NCBI RefSeq assembly: GCF_011045215.1
Contig: NZ_CP049201.1
DNA from: Escherichia coli
Lineage (GTDB): Bacteria; Pseudomonadota; Gammaproteobacteria; Enterobacterales; Enterobacteriaceae
DNA: 64,000 bases
Direction: 5' to 3' (one strand)
Shown here: positions 400 through 45,346 of the stretch, one piece after another
Position numbering within the stretch: the first letter of the stretch is position 1
Layout of the letters: each line of letters starts with the position of its first letter
Notes under the pieces: generated by a model
Told to the model about the DNA's origin: nothing
The model's database searches: none
The model's input: the letters and a program-made list of their open reading frames with translations, nothing else
Program-made: the position numbers and the translations under genes

Positions 400-1344
400 T
401 TATTTATACAGATCTGCGCTGACGGTCAGGTTATTACCACGTTCCTGCCACTGGCGGGTGATGTGGTAATACTTAGCACCTTTCTTCGCGGCACGTTTCG
501 CAACCTGATAGGAGACTTCGGTCATGTTGCCGTAGTTGCCAGAGAATTTGATGCTGTCGAACGGGACCATCATCGCTGCTGTCGCTTTGTTCAGTTCTTC
601 GACTTTAGTGCCGTCCGGGAGCGTGACGGTGTAACGCCCGCCTTTTGATGACTGGGTTTCAAAGAAGCGACCGACTTCAGAACTTGGTGATGCGGTAGTC
701 GCAACACCCGGGATCTCAACTTTCTTCGCGGCTTCGCCACCGGCAGCCAGAGCTGCACGTCCTGCTTCGGAATCTGCCGGGATCACATCCGGGCTCTGGA
801 CGATACGTTTCTTAGCATCTTTTTTATAGATGAATGCAGTAATACGCTGGTTGCCGCCCTGGTTGGCATCGATTTGACGAACAATGTAGAAAGAGTAGGC
901 ACCTTTCGCTTTTGCCGCTTTGGTGATGGCATCATTGACTTCTGGCTGGCTACGATAGAAGCCCTGGACGGTGACCGTGTCAAACGGTTCAATCAGAACA
1001 GCCTGATCTTTCGGCAGTTCGACAACACCGTTAATTACGCGATTACTTGTTTCTTCTGCTTTTTCAGCATCGGCTTTATAGAGGTCAGCGACCACACGCC
1101 AGTTACCGCTGTTACCAAAATCAGAAGTGTCGACAACATAAAAAGAGGCGGCACCTTCTTTATCTGCGCGACGAGAAACGGCTTTCACCGCTTCGCCAAT
1201 AGCATTAAAACGACCGGTAACCACTACACGGTCAAAAGGTTTAACCGCTGCCGCTTGCTCCGGTGTCAGTTCTGTTGCTGCGTTAACGGAGAATGCCGTA
1301 GCAGAAAGCAGTGCCGACGCCAGGAGGGTGTTCTTAAGCTTCAT
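400..1344 (-). CDS. ydgH: Periplasmic DUF1471-repeat protein YdgH
   Basis: 314-aa ORF with signal peptide MKLKNTLLASALLSATAFSVNA and three internal repeats of the YdgH type. Synteny next to pntA. Confidence 0.9.
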   Translation of the reverse strand: MKLKNTLLASALLSATAFSVNAATELTPEQAAAVKPFDRVVVTGRFNAIGEAVKAVSRRADKEGAASFYVVDTSDFGNSGNWRVVADLYKADAEKAEETSNRVINGVVELPKDQAVLIEPFDTVTVQGFYRSQPEVNDAITKAAKAKGAYSFYIVRQIDANQGGNQRITAFIYKKDAKKRIVQSPDVIPADSEAGRAALAAGGEAAKKVEIPGVATTASPSSEVGRFFETQSSKGGRYTVTLPDGTKVEELNKATAAMMVPFDSIKFSGNYGNMTEVSYQVAKRAAKKGAKYYHITRQWQERGNNLTVSADLYK

Positions 1345-1804
1345 AAAAATAATCCTTCGCCTTGCGCAAACCAGGTACTGGTATTGTTATTAACGAGAAA
1401 CGTGGCTGATTATTGCATTTAAACGGTGTAACTGTCTGCGTCATTTTTCATATCAGATTCCTTAAGCCAATTTTAATCCTGCCCAAATGACCGTCTATGC
1501 TTAAAAAACAGCCGTATCAGCATCAATACTACTGAAGCAACTGAATTGTATAAGTTAATTTAATGTTAAGTAGTGATTCGTGCCGGGGCGATGTCTCGTT
1601 TTACCTGACCGTCGAAGACAATTATCAGTCTTTATCCAGCGTTCTAAGGTGTTTATCCCACTATCACGGCTGAATCGTTAATATTTTGCGAGTTCACGCC
1701 GAAATACTGATTTTTGGCGCTAGATCACAGGCATAATTTTCAGTACGTTATAGGGCGTTTGTTACTAATTTATTTTAACGGAGTAACATTTAGCTCGTAC
1801 ATGA

Positions 1805-3400
<1,596 letters not shown>

Positions 3401-37512: not shown

Positions 37513-37566
37513 GGCTGCGGGTGCTTGAGGCTATCTGCCTCGGGCATGAACACCAACGGCAGATAG

Positions 37567-37639
37567 AGAAAAGCCCCAGTTAACATTACGCGTCCTGCAA
37601 GACGCTTAACATTAATCTGAGGCCAATTTCATGCTAGAC
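37567..37639 (-). ncRNA. Candidate Sok antisense RNA
   Basis: Minus-strand TTGCCT (37674-69)-N17-TAACCT (37651-46) faces the mok start region. There is a small hairpin gcgtc/gacgc, and the U-run is only 4 nt. The boundaries are guesses. Confidence 0.3.
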
Positions 37640-37843
37640 ACATGTAGGTTAGCCTCTTACGTGCCGAAAGGCAAGGAGAAGCAGGCTATGAAGCAGCAAA
37701 AGGCGATGTTAATCGCCCTGATCGTCATCTGTTTAACCGTCATAGTGACGGCACTGGTAACGAGGAAAGACCTCTGCGAGGTACGAATCCGAACCGGCCA
37801 GACGGAGGTCGCTGTCTTCACAGCTTACGAACCTGAGGAGTAA
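37631..37843 (+). CDS. Mok (in-frame upstream extension whose translation is coupled to hok)
   Basis: MLDTCRLASYVPKGKEKQA followed by the Hok sequence. Same layout as the K-12 MokB/MokC entries as I remember them. Confidence 0.55.
   Translation: MLDTCRLASYVPKGKEKQAMKQQKAMLIALIVICLTVIVTALVTRKDLCEVRIRTGQTEVAVFTAYEPEE
37688..37843 (+). CDS. hokD: Hok-family type I toxin (HokD/RelF-like)
   Basis: MKQQKAMLIALIVICLTVIVTALVTRKDLCEVRIRTGQTEVAVFTAYEPEE (51 aa). Confidence 0.9.
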   Translation: MKQQKAMLIALIVICLTVIVTALVTRKDLCEVRIRTGQTEVAVFTAYEPEE

Positions 37844-38657: not shown

Positions 38658-39707
38658 GTGCGGGTATTACTTCGACCTGTTCTGGTACCGGAACTCGGGC
38701 TGGTGGTCGTTAAGCCGGGCCGTGAATCCATGCCGGTATTCCACAATACCCGGGTACTGGTGGAGCCGGAACCGAAAAGCATGCGTAATCTGCCGTCCGG
38801 GATCGTTCCTGCCGTTCGCCAGCCGCTGGTGGAAGACAAAACATTGCTGCCGTTTTTCAGTAATGCACGGGTAATTCGTGCTGCTGGTGGTGCTGGTGCA
38901 TTGTCTGACTGGCTGTTGCGCCATATTAAATCCTGCCAGTGGCCACACGGCGATTATCATCACAGCGAAACCGTTATTCACCGTTATGGTACCGGCGCAA
39001 TGGTGTTGTGCTGGCACTGCGACAACCAGCTGCGTGACCAGACATCCGAATCACTCGAGCAACTTGCTCATCAAAACCTGTCAGCATGGATGATTGACGT
39101 CATCGGTCACGCAATAAGCGGTACGCAGGAGCGTGAATTATCTCTGGCTGAATTATCCTGGTGGGCGGTCCGCAATCAGGTGGCGGACGCGCTACCGGAA
39201 GCGGTATTACGTCGTTCGCTGGGGTTGCGTGCGGAAAAAATCCGCTCCATGTACCGTGAAAGCGACATCGTACCGGGAGAGCAGACCGCCACCAGCATAC
39301 TGAAACAGCGCACAAAAAATCTTGCGCCGCTGCCTCACGCCCACCAGCAACAGAACCCACCACAGGAAAAGACGGTGGTCAGCATTGCCGTTGATCCTGA
39401 GTCTCCGGAATCTTTCATGAAACGACCTAAACGTCGCCGCTGGGTTAATGAAAAGTACACGCGCTGGGTTAAGACACAGCCGTGTGCATGTTGTGGAAAG
39501 CCCGCTGATGATCCCCACCACCTGATAGGCCACGGTCAGGGGGGAATGGGTACAAAAGCGCATGACCTCTTTGTGTTGCCTTTGTGCAGAAAGCATCACG
39601 ACGAGCTGCATGCGGATACCGTGGCATTTGAAGAGAAGTATGGCTCCCAGCTGGAGCTGATATTTCGTTTTATCGATCGTGCGCTGGCAATTGGCGTGCT
39701 GGCCTGA
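38658..39707 (+). CDS. ydfU: DUF968 protein (YdfU-like)
   Basis: 349 aa with a GTG start. The C-terminal CACCGKPADDPHHLIGHGQGGMGTKAHDLFVLPLCRKHHDELH is the DUF968 signature. Confidence 0.8.
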   Translation: MRVLLRPVLVPELGLVVVKPGRESMPVFHNTRVLVEPEPKSMRNLPSGIVPAVRQPLVEDKTLLPFFSNARVIRAAGGAGALSDWLLRHIKSCQWPHGDYHHSETVIHRYGTGAMVLCWHCDNQLRDQTSESLEQLAHQNLSAWMIDVIGHAISGTQERELSLAELSWWAVRNQVADALPEAVLRRSLGLRAEKIRSMYRESDIVPGEQTATSILKQRTKNLAPLPHAHQQQNPPQEKTVVSIAVDPESPESFMKRPKRRRWVNEKYTRWVKTQPCACCGKPADDPHHLIGHGQGGMGTKAHDLFVLPLCRKHHDELHADTVAFEEKYGSQLELIFRFIDRALAIGVLA

Positions 39708-39724
39708 TTTTGTGGAGAAAGTTG

Positions 39725-40069
39725 ATGCGTGATATGTATGAAGTTTTAGACCGCTGGGGAGCGTGGGCTGCAGCAGATAACAGTGGTGTGGACTGGCAGC
39801 CGATAGCAGCAGGCTTTAAGGGGCTTTTACCTCATGGTAAAAAAATACGCCTTCAGTGTGATGATGATGAAGGCATCATGATAGACGGCTGTGTTGCCCG
39901 CCTGTGTAAGTATAAACCAGACGAATATGAGCTGATCATTGCTCACTTCGTTATAGGTATTTCACTGCGTTCTATTGCGAAGAGACGCAGATGCTCAGAT
40001 GGAACAATCCGGAAGCAATTGCAGACTGCGTTAGGTTTCATTAATGGGGTTATGTACATGCTCAAGTAA
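39725..40069 (+). CDS. Late antiterminator Q (QuuD/phage-82-type)
   Basis: MRDMYEVLDRWGAWAAADNSGVDWQPIAAGFKGLLP...CDDDEG..IDGCVARL is colinear with remembered DLP12 QuuD. A GGAG SD lies 7 nt upstream of ATG 39725. Confidence 0.8.
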   Translation: MRDMYEVLDRWGAWAAADNSGVDWQPIAAGFKGLLPHGKKIRLQCDDDEGIMIDGCVARLCKYKPDEYELIIAHFVIGISLRSIAKRRRCSDGTIRKQLQTALGFINGVMYMLK

Positions 40070-41288
40070 TATTTGGCATTAATTTAAATAAAATACCGAT
40101 GATGCCTATGAATGTAGGCATCCATGCTAGTGATAATAAACTGTCAAGCACCTTATGACAAAAATCCTCATTGTCATTTAATTTTTTAATAGCCTCTTCT
40201 AAGCTCTCTTTAAGATCGCTGGTGTCATCCTTTATTCTATATCTTAATTGTCCAAAAAGTATTTCTTTAGAGTGTGAAATACGAGCAAGTTGTTTTTTTT
40301 GTGACACAATCATTGCAGATGTTATTATTGCTGTGATAATCAATCCAATTAAAGCAATAATCCAATCAGCTTTTGTTGTTAATTTGAAAATAGCAATTGA
40401 ACCAGCTAGTGAAATAGGTATTGCAAGAGCTTTGTTAGAAATTTCTGAAATTATTTTTGACAGTTTTTCTGAGTAATCGAGTTCAGCATCAACAACTTCT
40501 TTCCTTGCTTTATGAAAAGAAAATGCCGATATATAAGCAGCTAAGTTGTTCGTATAAAGTTCGCATATGAAATCCCACTTGTTAATTAACTCGACAAAGG
40601 AATTTCCATTTTTATTAACATACTCAATAACTGTGTTTCTGAAAGTGTTAATCTTTTCAATGTGATGGGCATCAGTAGTAGCTTCACTACTTACTAATGT
40701 TTTAACTAACTGAGTATTTACTGTTTTATCATTAAAAATTTCTTCTGTAATATTTGTTTCAATTACAGCAGAAGAAGATTTAGACTCTGAGTTTAAAATA
40801 AAGACTAAACGATAAAATGTACCTTTGCTATCTTTTTTTATATCATGGAAATGAGCAAGCATGGAAAGAGCATTGATTAGCTCACAAATGTCCTCAATTT
40901 TTTGGATATAAGAAGGTTTTGGTGTTTCTAATGAATAGAAATCATCCTCTATAATATAGAAATACTCTGGCATTATGCCTTTCTTGAGCGTGTTTATTTT
41001 TACAAACTCGTTTTTATTTTTATAAAAACGATTCGCACTTCCTTGTGAAATTTTAAACGAGTATGTAAGAAAATTTCCCTTTTCAGGAAAGTCTTCATAA
41101 TCATAAATTAAATGACCATCCACCTCTATTTCGTCAGCTGTACCAGCTTGAAAAGTAGGGTTCAAAATTCTTTTGAACAATGATTTTACGTCTGCATTAT
41201 AAGCTATACGCGCAGAAAACTTAGCCCCGTCAAAATGAGGATAGCTTGATAATCTATACAGATTAACTATTATACTAAAATCATTCAT
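40062..41288 (-). CDS. Hypothetical 408-aa protein: unknown ~285-aa N-terminal domain plus three predicted C-terminal TM segments (candidate effector)
   Basis: AT-rich ORF whose ATG overlaps the upstream stop as ATGA. Hydrophobic segments are ALAIPISLAGSIAIFKL, WIIALIGLIITAIITSAMIV and LLSLAWMPTFIGIIGILFKL. The stop overlaps the Q stop by 8 nt. Confidence 0.75.
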   Translation of the reverse strand: MNDFSIIVNLYRLSSYPHFDGAKFSARIAYNADVKSLFKRILNPTFQAGTADEIEVDGHLIYDYEDFPEKGNFLTYSFKISQGSANRFYKNKNEFVKINTLKKGIMPEYFYIIEDDFYSLETPKPSYIQKIEDICELINALSMLAHFHDIKKDSKGTFYRLVFILNSESKSSSAVIETNITEEIFNDKTVNTQLVKTLVSSEATTDAHHIEKINTFRNTVIEYVNKNGNSFVELINKWDFICELYTNNLAAYISAFSFHKARKEVVDAELDYSEKLSKIISEISNKALAIPISLAGSIAIFKLTTKADWIIALIGLIITAIITSAMIVSQKKQLARISHSKEILFGQLRYRIKDDTSDLKESLEEAIKKLNDNEDFCHKVLDSLLSLAWMPTFIGIIGILFKLMPNIT

Positions 41289-42451
41289 TCTTTATCTTCT
41301 TCATTACTCGGGTTATCAGTTTCTTTCAACGCTCTTCTTATCTTAGTTAATGCTTCAACAGGCAAATTATTAAATGTTAGGCTTTGGTTTTCGTCATCAT
41401 AATATATTTTAGCATCAGTTGTGACACCGAGTAAATCCTTGTCGAAGTGAAAGCTCAATGATGGGGTTTTATATATCACATTGCGGATTTTATCTAAGGA
41501 GTTTTTATTGATTACGAACTCTGATGGGATTCTGACTTCCTCACTATTGAGGTGTTTCATTAATTTATCAACAAGTTCTGTTTTTTCTTCCTCTTTTAAA
41601 TAGGACATATGGCCTGAAGCAAGCGATTCGATATCAGAAAGCCTTGCAGAGTGCTCGTTGTCAAATTGCTTTTCTAAGTATTTGATAACATCATTTCTAA
41701 ATGACTCTGCTTGATTTTTTAAAAGAGGTTCTTTCTTAAAGAAACGCCTTATTTCATCTGGTAACTTACGGGTTGCGCCTGCTGAAGCAATCCCCTTGTC
41801 ACATCCTAATGCTGCTATAAAATATGCTGCCGCTGACTGTCCCGTAGTTTTGCTTATAAAGCTTAGATAACTTAAGTCTGTTTTTTTTAAATCATCTGCT
41901 TTTTGGTATTCTTCATAATATCTGAAATTTATTTTTGCTGCTTGGTTAATATTACCAAGTTCTAAGTGAATCATTTCCTCTGGCTCTAAATTTTCACTAA
42001 TAGTTACGCCATTAGTTTTTTTGATCATTGTAACCAATAGATAACGGAAACCAGATAAAATATAATCAGTAAAAACAACATATCCTCCAGAAGCCCAAAT
42101 CTGCTCTTGAGCAGATTTATACATTTGTTTCATAACTTCCTTCGATAATTCAATGAAATCATTTGAAACAGATTGTTGAACTAAAGAGTATTTATGAAAT
42201 AGTTCTGGTATAGGGCCTTGTTTTGTTTTATTTTTAATAAAAACACCATAATGCGCTGAGTTCCCTTTTGAACCATACAAATCAATAACACCGTCTACTA
42301 ATTTTTTTACTATATCATTTGTTTTATCTAGTTCTGTATCACGAAGATTGTATGGTTTGGAGTGATCGAAGTCTTTATTAGATTCTTTTAAGAGCTCATG
42401 AACGATTACGTGGCGTATGCTTGCTTTGCTCATTTTTTTGGTCAATTCCAT
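41285..42451 (-). CDS. YejK/NdpA-like nucleoid-associated protein (NA37 family) homolog (candidate sensor)
   Basis: 388 aa (or 382 from ATG 42433). Colinear motifs against remembered E. coli YejK: IRHVIVHEL, YGVF, GGYVVFTDY..FRYLLVTMI, ISENLE, LSYLSFISK, AAYFIAALGC. Confidence 0.7.
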   Translation of the reverse strand: MELTKKMSKASIRHVIVHELLKESNKDFDHSKPYNLRDTELDKTNDIVKKLVDGVIDLYGSKGNSAHYGVFIKNKTKQGPIPELFHKYSLVQQSVSNDFIELSKEVMKQMYKSAQEQIWASGGYVVFTDYILSGFRYLLVTMIKKTNGVTISENLEPEEMIHLELGNINQAAKINFRYYEEYQKADDLKKTDLSYLSFISKTTGQSAAAYFIAALGCDKGIASAGATRKLPDEIRRFFKKEPLLKNQAESFRNDVIKYLEKQFDNEHSARLSDIESLASGHMSYLKEEEKTELVDKLMKHLNSEEVRIPSEFVINKNSLDKIRNVIYKTPSLSFHFDKDLLGVTTDAKIYYDDENQSLTFNNLPVEALTKIRRALKETDNPSNEEDKE

Positions 42452-42475
42452 GCGGTTAAGCTAACAATTGTAAAG

Positions 42476-42504
42476 AGCATAATAAATTACTAACGCGTAC
42501 GCAA
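42476..42504 (-). promoter_or_regulatory. Candidate promoter of the AT-rich cassette
   Basis: Minus-strand TTGCGT (42504-42499)-N17-TATGCT (42481-42476), about 25 nt upstream of ATG 42451. Confidence 0.4.
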
Positions 42505-42514
42505 AAACTATCAT
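42487..42514 (+). promoter_or_regulatory. Candidate late promoter pR' (Q target), overlapping the cassette promoter back to back
   Basis: TTACTA-N16-TATCAT on the + strand. A short leader then ends in a hairpin plus T7, like the lambdoid pR'-tR' unit. Confidence 0.35.
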
Positions 42515-42549
42515 AATCTGTTAAGAGTGGTTACTTCGCCACACAGCTT

Positions 42550-42575
42550 AAACCCGCCGTCGAGCGGTTTTTTTG
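42550..42575 (+). terminator. Candidate tR' terminator
   Basis: aaacccgc-cgtcga-gcggttttttt, with a 4-bp GC core extendable by A:T pairs and seven T residues. Confidence 0.5.
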
Positions 42576-42696
42576 TACCTGTAAAACTGGTGCAGTACAG
42601 TAAACACGCTGGTGGTCGTGAATACTGACTTTTTATCTTGCTGGCTTTTTAGACAAGAGTTATTGGTATGTCATGTTAACCAGAAGGGAAAAAGAC

Positions 42697-42900
42697 ATGC
42701 TAAAACAGCAAGATATGACAGAAACCGCCGCCGCAGTCCTTCATTTCTTACCTGCTGACAAGTGGGTAACGCCACGCATGATGACGAGAACTACCGGAGT
42801 AAGCGAAGCCCGGTGCCAGTTAATACTGACTCAGTTAGTTCTGGCGGGTCTGGCGAAGGATAACGGCGGGTACGGGAATAAATTCAGACGCTGCCAGTAA
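42697..42900 (+). CDS. Hypothetical small protein (possible winged-helix)
   Basis: ATG 42697 has an AAGGGA SD. The track ORF begins at 42673. No motif recognised. Confidence 0.4.
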   Translation: MLKQQDMTETAAAVLHFLPADKWVTPRMMTRTTGVSEARCQLILTQLVLAGLAKDNGGYGNKFRRCQ

Positions 42901-43050: not shown

Positions 43051-44103
43051 ATGAAAAATACTGTAAAAATAAACAGTGTTGATTTAATCAACGCTGATTG
43101 CCTGCATTTTATTCAGTCCTTGCCTGATGATTCCATTGATCTGATTGTTACCGATCCGCCGTACTTCAAAGTGAAGCCCAACGGCTGGGACAATCAGTGG
43201 AAAGGGGACGAAGATTACCTGAAGTGGCTGGACTACTGTCTGGCCCAGTTCTGGCGGGTACTGAAACCAGCCGGAAGCCTTTACCTGTTCTGTGGACATC
43301 GCCTGGCATCTGATATTGAGATCATGATGCGTGAACGTTTCAACGTGCTTAACCATATCATCTGGGCGAAGCCGTCCGGACGTTGGAATGGGTGTAATAA
43401 AGAAAGTCTGCGCGCATATTTTCCTGCCACAGAGCGCGTTCTGTTTGCTGAACATTACCAGGGGCCATATCGCGGCAAAAGTGACGGCTATGCGGCAAAA
43501 GAAAGGGAACTCAAACAGCACATAATGGCACCGCTGATATCGTATTTCAGGGATGCTCGTGCCGAACTGGGTATAACGGCAAAACAAATTGCCGAAGCCA
43601 CAGGTAAGAAAAATATGGTTTCCCACTGGTTTGGTGCCAGTCAGTGGCAGTTGCCGAATGAGGCTGACTATCGGAAGTTACAGGCACTGTTTTCCCGTAT
43701 AGCGGCAGAGAAGTTTCAGGAACAACAACTGGAACAACCACACCACCAGCTGGTGGCATCTTATGATTCACTGAATCGCAAATATTCTGAATTGCTGGAT
43801 GAGTTTAAATCTCTCCGGCGCTATTTCTCCGTATCAGTCTCCGTGCCTTATACCGATGTCTGGATGCATAAACCCGTTCAGTTCTACCCGGGTAAACATC
43901 CGTGTGAGAAACCTGCGGATATGCTCCGGCAAATAATCAATGCCAGTAGTCGACCTGGTGATCTGGTTGCTGATTTTTTTATGGGATCCGGTTCCACAAT
44001 AAAAGCAGCAATGGCGCTGGGGCGTCGGGCCTTAGGTGTTGAGCTTGAGTCAGAGCGGTTTAACCAGACAGTGAAAGAGATATACGAGCTGGTGGGGAAA
44101 TAA
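43051..44103 (+). CDS. Orphan DNA methyltransferase (N6A/N4C, beta-class motif order)
   Basis: LIVTDPPYF (motif IV) is N-terminal and DFFMGSGSTIKAA (motif I, FxGxG) is C-terminal. 350 aa, with no adjacent endonuclease-like ORF. Confidence 0.85.
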   Translation: MKNTVKINSVDLINADCLHFIQSLPDDSIDLIVTDPPYFKVKPNGWDNQWKGDEDYLKWLDYCLAQFWRVLKPAGSLYLFCGHRLASDIEIMMRERFNVLNHIIWAKPSGRWNGCNKESLRAYFPATERVLFAEHYQGPYRGKSDGYAAKERELKQHIMAPLISYFRDARAELGITAKQIAEATGKKNMVSHWFGASQWQLPNEADYRKLQALFSRIAAEKFQEQQLEQPHHQLVASYDSLNRKYSELLDEFKSLRRYFSVSVSVPYTDVWMHKPVQFYPGKHPCEKPADMLRQIINASSRPGDLVADFFMGSGSTIKAAMALGRRALGVELESERFNQTVKEIYELVGK

Positions 44104-44169: not shown

Positions 44170-44385
44170 ATGAAATCCATGGATAAGTTAACAACGGGTG
44201 TCGCCTATGGCACCTCAGCAGGTAGTGCCGGGTACTGGTTTTTACAGTTGCTCGATAAAGTCACGCCCTCACAGTGGGCGGCAATAGGTGTGCTGGGTAG
44301 TCTGGTATTTGGCTTGCTGACGTATCTGACAAACCTTTATTTCAAGATTAAAGAAGATAAGCGTAAGGCTGCGAGAGGTGAATAA
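44170..44385 (+). CDS. Phage-21-type pinholin S
   Basis: [71 protein letters not shown], near-identical in pattern to remembered S21. Confidence 0.9.
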
Positions 44386-44882
44386 TGTCGCCATCATTAC
44401 GCAAGGCTGTTGCTGCTGCTATTGGTGGTGGGGCTGTTGCCATAGCGTCTGTGCTCATCACTGGTCCGAGTGGTGACGATGGCCTGGAAGGTGTCAGCTA
44501 CATACCATACAAAGATATCGTTGGCGTATGGACTGTATGTCACGGACACACCGGAAAAGACATCATGCTAGGTAAAACGTATACCGAAGCAGAATGCAAA
44601 GCCCTCCTGAATAAAGACCTTGCCACGGTCGCCAGACAAATTAACCCGTACATCAAAGTCGATATACCGGAAACAACGCGCGGCGCTCTTTACTCGTTCG
44701 TCTACAACGTGGGTGCTGGCAATTTCAGAACATCGACGCTTCTTCGCAAAATAAACCAGGGCGATATCAAAGGCGCATGTGACCAGCTACGTCGCTGGAC
44801 ATACGCTGGCGGTAAGCAATGGAAAGGCCTGATGACTCGTCGTGAGATTGAGCGTGAAGTCTGTTTGTGGGGGCAACAATGA
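44385..44882 (+). CDS. SAR endolysin (T4-lysozyme/GH24 type, R21-like)
   Basis: N-terminal signal-anchor-release segment [18 protein letters not shown], a catalytic E (GLEGVSY) region, and [19 protein letters not shown]. Confidence 0.9.
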
Positions 44883-45346
44883 GCAGAGTAACCGCGATTA
44901 TCTCCGCTCTGGTTATCTGCATCATCGTCTGCCTGTCGTGGGCGGTCAATCATTACCGTGATAACGCCATCGCCTACAAAGAACAGCGAGATAAAAAAGT
45001 CAGTGAGCTGAAGCAGGCGACCGCCACCATCGCTGACATGCAGCAGCGTCAGCGTGATGTTGCTGCGATCGATGCAAAATACACGAAGGAGTTAGCCGAT
45101 GCGAAAACTGAAAATGAAACTCTGCGCGCTGATGTTGCCGCTGGTCGTAAGCGCCTGCGGGTCAATGCCAGTTGCTCCGCAGCCGTGCGTGAAGCCACCG
45201 GACCCACCAGCATGGATAATGCAACCAGCCCCCGACTGGCAGACACCGCTGAACGGGATTATTTCATCCTCAGAGAACGGTTGATGACGATGCAGAAGCA
45301 ACTGGAAGGGGCGCAGGAATATATCCGCACCCAGCGCATTAAGTAG
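44879..45346 (+). CDS. i-spanin Rz
   Basis: [24 protein letters not shown]-terminal TM segment then a coiled coil. The ATG overlaps the R stop as ATGA. Confidence 0.85.
45099..45284 (+). CDS. o-spanin Rz1 (embedded in Rz, +1 frame)
   Basis: Lipobox LVVSAC and a Pro-rich mature part. Entirely nested in Rz. Confidence 0.8.

Follow-up and report, generated by a model that had tools for sequence, protein, structure and literature searches.

A strongly diverged relative of the DS-1 anti-phage gene pair in the Q-lysis slot of an Escherichia coli prophage: a probable two-gene defence module

Two antisense genes occupy the interval between the antiterminator Q gene and the lysis genes of a lambdoid prophage in Escherichia coli (RefSeq assembly GCF_011045215.1, contig NZ_CP049201.1), within a 64,000 nucleotide (nt) stretch of DNA that was analyzed as a whole and is referred to here as the window. 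Gene A (41285-42451, minus strand), recognized from its open reading frame (ORF) and a Pfam match, encodes a 388 amino acid (aa) nucleoid-associated protein (NAP) of the NA37/YejK family and is the proposed sensor. Gene B (40062-41288, minus strand), recognized from its ORF and from NCBIfam and phrog matches, encodes a 408 aa partner that is the proposed membrane effector. Judged by sequence homology, the cassette is a divergent member of the DS-1, or NAP-plus-membrane-effector, kind of system and not an undescribed one. It is very probably a defence module, and the fuller reading, that of a prophage-carried two-gene anti-phage module of the DS-1/PANGU type II kind that would act by the mechanism proposed below, is given a probability of about 0.7. 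The original prediction had proposed an undescribed prophage abortive infection (Abi) or exclusion module, in which a DNA-binding sensor is coupled to a membrane effector. The sensor and effector roles are supported by homology to DS-1 and by the architecture of PANGU type II systems, and the kind of function was readable from the raw sequence. The claim of novelty, and with it the statement that the pair belongs to no named family, has to be dropped, since both proteins match models of DS-1, which was published in 2026 (PMC13092281); DS-1 (Science 2026) and PANGU (bioRxiv 2026) both preceded it.

Organization of the operon

The two ORFs were found exactly where they had been predicted, and direct reading bore out the ATGA junction at 41285-41288 (minus strand), where the TGA of gene A (41287-41285) overlaps the ATG of gene B (41288-41286). 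Among relatives the spacing between the two genes ranges from -38 to +39 nt, so that close spacing is kept but the exact overlap is not. The antisense placement and the drop in G+C content, both part of the original prediction, were also confirmed: every flanking phage gene is on the plus strand, and G+C is 0.29-0.36 across 40000-42400 compared with 0.47-0.56 in both flanks. Given DNA of 31% G+C, and hundreds of homologues for each protein, two ORFs of about 400 codons are far beyond chance expectation. A 101 aa plus-strand ORF lying within gene B (40171-40476) was set aside as a chance ORF of AT-rich DNA. At its 3' end, gene B converges with Q, its stop codon (40062-40064) falling inside the last codons of the Q gene (stop codon 40067-40069) to give an 8 nt tail-to-tail overlap (40062-40069). 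The start codon of gene A is ambiguous, since RefSeq places it at 42433 (382 aa, WP_120130707.1-like) and not at 42451; no obvious Shine-Dalgarno sequence is seen before the ATG at 42451.

Homology to the validated system DS-1

DS-1 (working name D390) is system 1 of DefensePredictor (DeWeirdt et al., Science 2026, PMC13092281), and consists of DS-1A (WP_000355468.1, 391 aa), with a zinc ribbon and an NA37 domain, and DS-1B (WP_000150292.1, 404 aa). In MG1655, a clone that included the native promoter showed validated anti-phage activity (PMC13092281, Tables S6, S7 and S11), with -log efficiency of plating values of 7.6 for Bas1, 2.7 for Bas26, 1.7 for both Bas3 and T3, 1.0 for T5 and 0.9 for T7, and small plaques in the case of SECphi27 (Table S7). 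The YejK domain was named in that study as newly implicated in defence, and the mechanism of DS-1 was not studied there.

Both proteins of the window cassette match the NCBIfam models built for this system. Gene A scores 98.2 bits (E = 4.9e-28) against DS1_1_antiphage, the 'nucleoid-associated anti-phage protein', and gene B scores 100.7 bits (E = 8.9e-29) against DS1_2_antiphage, its residues 86-397 aligning to profile positions 31-336 of 337. When the gene B family (A1, 39 sequences) was compared profile to profile (hhalign) with that of DS-1B (A2, 32 sequences), the probability was 99.4% and E = 4.8e-21 over 308 columns. Common to the two families is their most conserved block, FSxxK...SK...K-A-L-x-I-P, which lies where a long helix ends and the first membrane segment begins; its invariant residues in gene B include F256, S257, K260, K286 and P291.

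In strain K71-77 the cassette is annotated as WP_046657265.1 plus WP_120130707.1, the latter being the NA37 protein, for which Table S10 of the DefensePredictor study gives log-odds 10.3 and the label 'predicted novel defense gene' (PMC13092281). The same table gives log-odds 13.0 for WP_016159279.1, a 408 aa protein that is probably the gene B partner, since its accession number directly precedes that of the K71-77 Q protein. The cassette accessions are absent from the tables of tested units (PMC13092281), and together with the listing in Table S10 this makes the cassette a predicted system and not a validated one.

Properties of the two proteins

Gene A had been likened to YejK on the basis of matching motif pairs, and this identity is well supported. 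The protein matches Pfam NA37 (PF04245) with 172.3 bits and E = 2.2e-50 across residues 16-364 (profile positions 1-321 of 325), which passes the gathering cut-off of 24.6 bits and covers the full length of the domain, and it matches phrog_3767 ('nucleoid associated protein') with E = 2.4e-98. Its sole solved relative is E. coli YejK (9be2_A; phmmer E = 6.7e-15, residues 11-372 aligned to 7-331), and each of those motif pairs is reproduced in that alignment. YejK itself is a dimeric DNA clamp that shows no sequence preference (Schumacher et al., NAR 2024, PMC11229321; PDB 9be2). Against the NCBIfam YejK equivalog model (NF001557) gene A scored 133.2 bits and did not reach the cut-off of 341, so it is a member of the family and not an orthologue of the housekeeping YejK.

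For gene B no Pfam family was found in the Pfam search, and matches to DUF4456 and ATP-synt_ab_C, which lay under the Pfam cut-offs, were discarded as noise; it matches phrog_5023 with E = 1.2e-137. The AlphaFold2 (AF2) model (predicted local distance difference test score, 85.7) has a compact, mildly acidic alpha/beta domain at residues 1-185 (40734-41288, minus strand), which is a candidate docking domain for the NA37 protein. A structure search with the N-terminal domain detected no recognizable known fold and no structural relative, and for this reason the effector mechanism may be new. Residues 288-408 (40065-40427, minus strand) comprise two transmembrane (TM) segments, TM1 and TM2, a charged cytoplasmic helical hairpin and a third segment, TM3. 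This corresponds to the prediction of three hydrophobic segments, the last two of which are separated by a charged helical stretch. By hydropathy the segments are at 287-305 (weak), 303-331 (strong) and 381-405, and the AF2 model places helices at 289-302, 306-351, 358-388 and 390-403. The weak TM1 opens with the conserved K-A-L-x-I-P motif. Hydropathy and the AF2 model together give a topology that agrees with the positive-inside rule and places the N-terminal domain on the cytoplasmic side.

Distribution, pairing and co-divergence

A word-indexed search with gene B returned 59 clusters, all from Enterobacterales, and an exhaustive profile search returned 1011 representative clusters at E <= 1e-3 (198 at E <= 1e-30), mostly of 400-430 aa. 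The published models thus understate the size of the partner family by far, and NA37 pairing was seen in every sampled case. A search for the pair in other genomes, one of the checks set out with the original prediction, found the NA37 gene directly upstream of the partner at 11 of 11 genomic loci (in Shigella, Ewingella, Pantoea, Xenorhabdus, Pectobacterium, Providencia and Proteus) and adjacent to it in all 48 IMG/VR viral contigs; among intact relatives in a lambdoid context the figure is 58 of 58. The pairing is obligate, and the distances of A and of B from the window copies correlate closely (Spearman 0.89, n = 58), with Q following the two more loosely (Spearman 0.41). A single isolated phage, Klebsiella phage P7641, was found by tblastn to carry the pair, in the same arrangement and including the overlap with Q.

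An NA37 gene is likewise the immediate upstream neighbor of five more distant family members (162-288 bits), but their contexts are different, one member being beside a HicB antitoxin gene and one near a D12 methylase gene. In another (locus L070, 4004-8494; GCA_019219295.1, JAHUWA010000005.1) the pair is part of a P2-like prophage, where it has the gene for a CI/S24-type repressor on one side and the integrase gene on the other, with Ogr/Delta and CP76 genes in the vicinity, a position that would be transcribed in the lysogen. Retention of the NA37 partner in these distant contexts indicates that the two genes form one self-contained unit, which is tied to Q just in the lambdoid lineage.

The cassette had been described as a foreign moron. 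Its AT-richness is general, the pair having a G+C content of 0.29-0.37 at all loci irrespective of that of the host, but a recent foreign insertion is ruled out, since slot, orientation and low G+C persist across genera and with proteins down to 33% identity. The pair is a long-term, co-diverging resident of the Q-linked slot in at least seven genera.

It could still be asked whether the genes are cargo that is neutral or decaying and at present serves no function in the source strain. Both genes are split into several ORFs in Shigella flexneri SFBU0723 (L005, 6836-9186) and in the Pantoea sp. symbiont of Euschistus servus (L012, 6864-9140), which suggests that these copies, two of those at the 11 genomic loci, are pseudogenes, and the cassette is rare, being present in 29 of 5426 complete E. 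coli genomes (DS-1 is present in 106). Shigella flexneri and the Pantoea symbiont are organisms known for genome decay. In the window, however, both ORFs are intact and neither is shortened in comparison with its family, copies in unrelated strains are 99.6% identical, and the pair is conserved down to 33% identity. Genes so intact and strongly conserved make neutral cargo a very improbable explanation.

Proposed mechanism

PANGU type II systems consist of Pag2A, a YejK-like NAP, and Pag2B, a transmembrane effector with an acidic, 'DNA-mimicking' N-terminal domain, and were described with an E. coli example, PANGU-Ecu (Li et al., bioRxiv 10.64898/2026.04.06.716658). According to the same preprint, both genes of PANGU-Ecu are needed and neither is toxic alone, and protection is Abi-like: infected cultures stall without lysis, and growth is arrested at high multiplicity of infection (MOI). 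Pag2A binds the N-terminal domain of Pag2B with a dissociation constant (KD) of 19 nM, a fusion of Pag2A to green fluorescent protein (GFP) departs from the nucleoid upon T4 infection, and T4 mutants in denA, the gene for the endonuclease II that starts host-DNA degradation, escape. In the model drawn from these results, a nucleoid protein is released when the phage degrades the host genome, and then binds the membrane effector (bioRxiv 10.64898/2026.04.06.716658).

This is the only tested mechanism for such an architecture, and since the window pair fits the architecture it is adopted here as the most likely one. In the lysogen, the NA37 protein would sit on the chromosome until its release by the host-DNA degradation that a superinfecting lytic phage brings about. 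The freed protein would then bind the cytoplasmic N-terminal domain of its membrane partner, whose membrane module would become activated and most likely perturb the inner membrane, and the infected cell would cease to support phage growth, i.e., an abortive infection. The prophage's own induction should not trigger the module, since a lambdoid prophage does not degrade host DNA. The T1-like, T5-like and T7-like phages targeted by DS-1 are known to degrade host DNA, and both this target range and residence in a lambdoid prophage are consistent with the genome-damage model.

Several observations weigh against this reading. Both DS-1 equivalog cut-offs are missed widely (98 versus 330 bits for NF053868 DS1_1_antiphage, and 101 versus 315 bits for NF053869 DS1_2_antiphage), and identity by BLASTP is only about 24% for gene A with DS-1A (E = 3e-11) as well as for gene B with DS-1B (E = 2e-10). 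The run of both proteins against PADLOC-DB v2.0 (2023), which had been recommended as a check, found no system, gene A giving DrmC at E = 0.047 at most and gene B no match. The basic DNA-pore residues that were mutated in YejK (R173/R176/K177 and R276/R280/K284) are not matched position for position in gene A, where the phmmer alignment has nearby Lys and Arg residues beside them. Residues 1-287 of gene B are just mildly acidic, with a net charge of -7 and a pI of 5.6 (the family median before the first hydrophobic segment is -11), compared with the densely acidic domain described for Pag2B; structure searches with gene B returned generic helical-bundle matches alone, and its action on the membrane is purely inferred. 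In a promoter scan the number of sites did not exceed that in shuffled sequence, and upstream of gene A none was convincingly placed. The split copies in S. flexneri and the Pantoea symbiont also count here.

The same combination of a membrane-anchored partner and a non-specific DNA clamp could act earlier, by superinfection exclusion at entry, the clamp capturing or blocking incoming phage DNA at the inner membrane such that the cell survives and no abortive infection takes place. The pair is prophage-borne, as are the classical sie genes, and the reduction of Bas1 by DS-1, at more than 7 logs, is as strong as that which entry blocks often give. Yet the arrest at high MOI, the denA escape mutants and the relocation of the NAP in PANGU type II all indicate the sensing of damage after entry, and a Pfam SieB match on gene A (E = 0.21) was discarded as noise. 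Exclusion at entry is therefore considered improbable, and abortive infection following genome damage is the preferred mode of action.

Convergence with the Q gene

A convergent Q gene abuts or overlaps the 3' end of the partner gene at 10 of 12 genomic loci and at 48 of 48 viral loci, with gaps of -20 to +79 nt, and in the lambdoid lineage as a whole this applies to 58 of 60 loci, with proteins down to 33% identity. Such a near-invariant tail-to-tail arrangement, which is shared by DS-1, could point to a housekeeping role in the prophage: a membrane-tethered nucleoid protein might organize or silence prophage DNA, or the antisense transcript into Q might stabilize lysogeny (compare paQ of lambda). 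No minus-strand terminator was detected by the scan between gene B and Q, and horizontally transferred NA37 proteins occur as plasmid-borne NAPs, Pnd of pCAR1 being an example. On the other hand, DS-1 protects from a plasmid in a strain without the prophage, an antisense RNA needs no two long, conserved and co-diverging proteins, and the distant family members retain the pair with no Q nearby. A housekeeping role is, on balance, quite improbable. Both it and exclusion at entry are disfavored by the activity of plasmid-borne DS-1 in the prophage-free strain and by the PANGU phenotypes.

It can be speculated, although the idea is rather doubtful, that the overlap itself is functional, and that convergent transcription keeps the defence operon and the lytic switch from being active together. 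The transcript of the cassette would, in the lysogen, run antisense into Q and dampen leaky activation of the late genes, and upon induction, antiterminated early transcription through Q would run antisense into the cassette and turn the Abi module off, so that the phage burst would not be self-aborted. This proposal draws on the conservation across the lambdoid-lineage loci, DS-1 and Klebsiella phage P7641, and on the failure to detect a terminator between the two genes. The fixed convergence with Q provides a testable idea of how a prophage might spare its own lytic cycle from an Abi module.

A prophage slot shared with DS-1

The window cassette and DS-1 occupy the same place. In DS-1 DNA (L016), a convergent Q gene overlaps the 3' end of DS-1B, the Q protein being 84% identical to that of the window, and in complete genomes DS-1 has Q and a DUF968 gene on one side and late-region genes on the other. 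The region at 42489-42729, which comprises the intergenic control region and the start of orf75, shows 92% nucleotide identity over 243 nt to the sequence upstream of DS-1A in E. coli NCCP 13905 (L017, 4816-5058), and is also common to cassette-less lambdoid phages. The homology to the DS-1 locus ends at 42489, leaving a cassette-specific leader (42452-42488, minus strand) between the control region and the annotated gene A start. With the Q side and control region in common, the two cassettes are alternative alleles between the same flanks. While the proteins of DS-1 are named 'anti-phage protein' and 'nucleoid-associated anti-phage protein' by the Prokaryotic Genome Annotation Pipeline (PGAP), those of the window cassette are named 'hypothetical protein' and 'nucleoid-associated protein'. 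The window thus carries a second, strongly diverged DS-1 allele in the same prophage slot, which is not recognized by PGAP or PADLOC 2.0.

Among deposited phages, megablast matches were limited to the right flank (42476-42700), which in those genomes follows Q or other cargo. In Escherichia virus mEp460_4F5 (LR595868.1; L015, 1525-2451) the mEp460 slot is filled by another antisense gene, encoding a hypothetical protein of 308 aa, and this different occupant indicates that the slot between Q and the orf75 control region is a variable position for antisense cargo. Other occupants may be further defence candidates.

Region 42489-42729 presumably contains divergent promoters, a late promoter directed rightwards and the cassette promoter leftwards. 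The late promoter was not located by consensus scan or sequence reading of the control region, and reading 42452-42580 by eye for a cassette promoter gave weak -35/-10 candidates alone. In the conserved stretch between the cassette and orf75, a G+C-rich, terminator-like hairpin followed by a run of seven T residues (42556-42576, plus strand) was found by consensus scan and in the sequence. It could be the tR' of the Q-dependent late transcript, in which case it would be read through by Q-modified RNA polymerase.

Flanking genes and other loci

The Q gene (39710-40069, plus strand; PF06530, E = 5e-44) is directly preceded by a gene for a DUF968/HNH protein (38658-39707, plus strand; PF06147, E = 3.9e-79; HNHc_6, E = 3.6e-6). 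The latter accompanies Q at most of the related loci, and so seems to form one conserved module with it. On the other side of the cassette, all on the plus strand, are orf75, a 75 aa ORF (42673-42900), and the genes for a DNA methylase (43051-44103), a holin (44170-44385), a lysozyme (44385-44882) and Rz (44867-45346). The late region of NCCP 13905, downstream of its DS-1 slot, is laid out differently: tRNA-Ile, tRNA-Arg and tRNA-Arg genes (L017, 3525-3774) and a gene for a SASA-family carbohydrate esterase (1075-3036) come before the holin gene, a layout typical of Stx (Shiga toxin)-type lambdoid phages, instead of the methylase-holin order of the window.

Two other loci in cassette-bearing prophages were noted. 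A hok/sok type I toxin-antitoxin locus is found in the nin region of the window prophage (37519-37843), where Rfam sok (RF01794) scores 115 bits at 37519-37693 (plus strand) and overlaps an ORF that resembles a Hok-family toxin in its C-terminal part, MKQQKAMLIALIVICLTVIVTALVTRKDLCEVRIRTGQTEVAVFTAYEPEE. In K71-77 (NZ_CP040886.1; L001, 10949-12848) the prophage lysozyme gene rrrD is truncated, and is followed on the opposite strand by a reverse-transcriptase gene and a SLATT-domain gene, a retron/DRT-like defence pair, beyond which are dinI, the integrase gene and dusA.

Comparison with known systems

Gene A shares the NA37 fold family with the housekeeping YejK over its full length, and differs in its location in a phage, its AT-richness and its obligate pairing with a membrane partner. 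RexAB of lambda is a classical lysogen-expressed two-gene exclusion system, and resembles the proposed logic of the cassette in that a lambdoid prophage carries a cytoplasmic sensor together with a membrane effector, which act against superinfecting lytic phages. However, RexAB shows no sequence or fold similarity to the pair, has another kind of sensor, and is located next to cI whereas the cassette is next to Q.

Compared by description alone, PANGU type II is alike in being a bicistronic unit of a YejK-like NAP and a partner with a soluble N-terminal domain and C-terminal TM segments. Its members were collected via linkage to defence islands, while the lineage described here is tied to prophage Q, and the acidity of the gene B N-terminal domain is modest where that of Pag2B is described as dense. 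PANGU-Ecu could be the same cassette, or DS-1.

The closest counterpart is DS-1, likewise a two-gene operon with the same gene order, an NA37/YejK-like gene followed by one for a partner that is about 400 aa long and has hydrophobic helices at its C-terminal end, and, like the window cassette, AT-rich and antisense to the phage late genes. The N-terminal CxxC...CxxC zinc ribbon of DS-1A is missing from gene A, which has one Cys; the first ~85 residues of the partners cannot be aligned, and the TM segments of gene B are much more hydrophobic than those of DS-1B. DS-1 has been validated experimentally, whereas the cassette described here is predicted. As a diverged allele in the DS-1 slot, it provides a natural partner for comparative mutagenesis and for studies of specificity.

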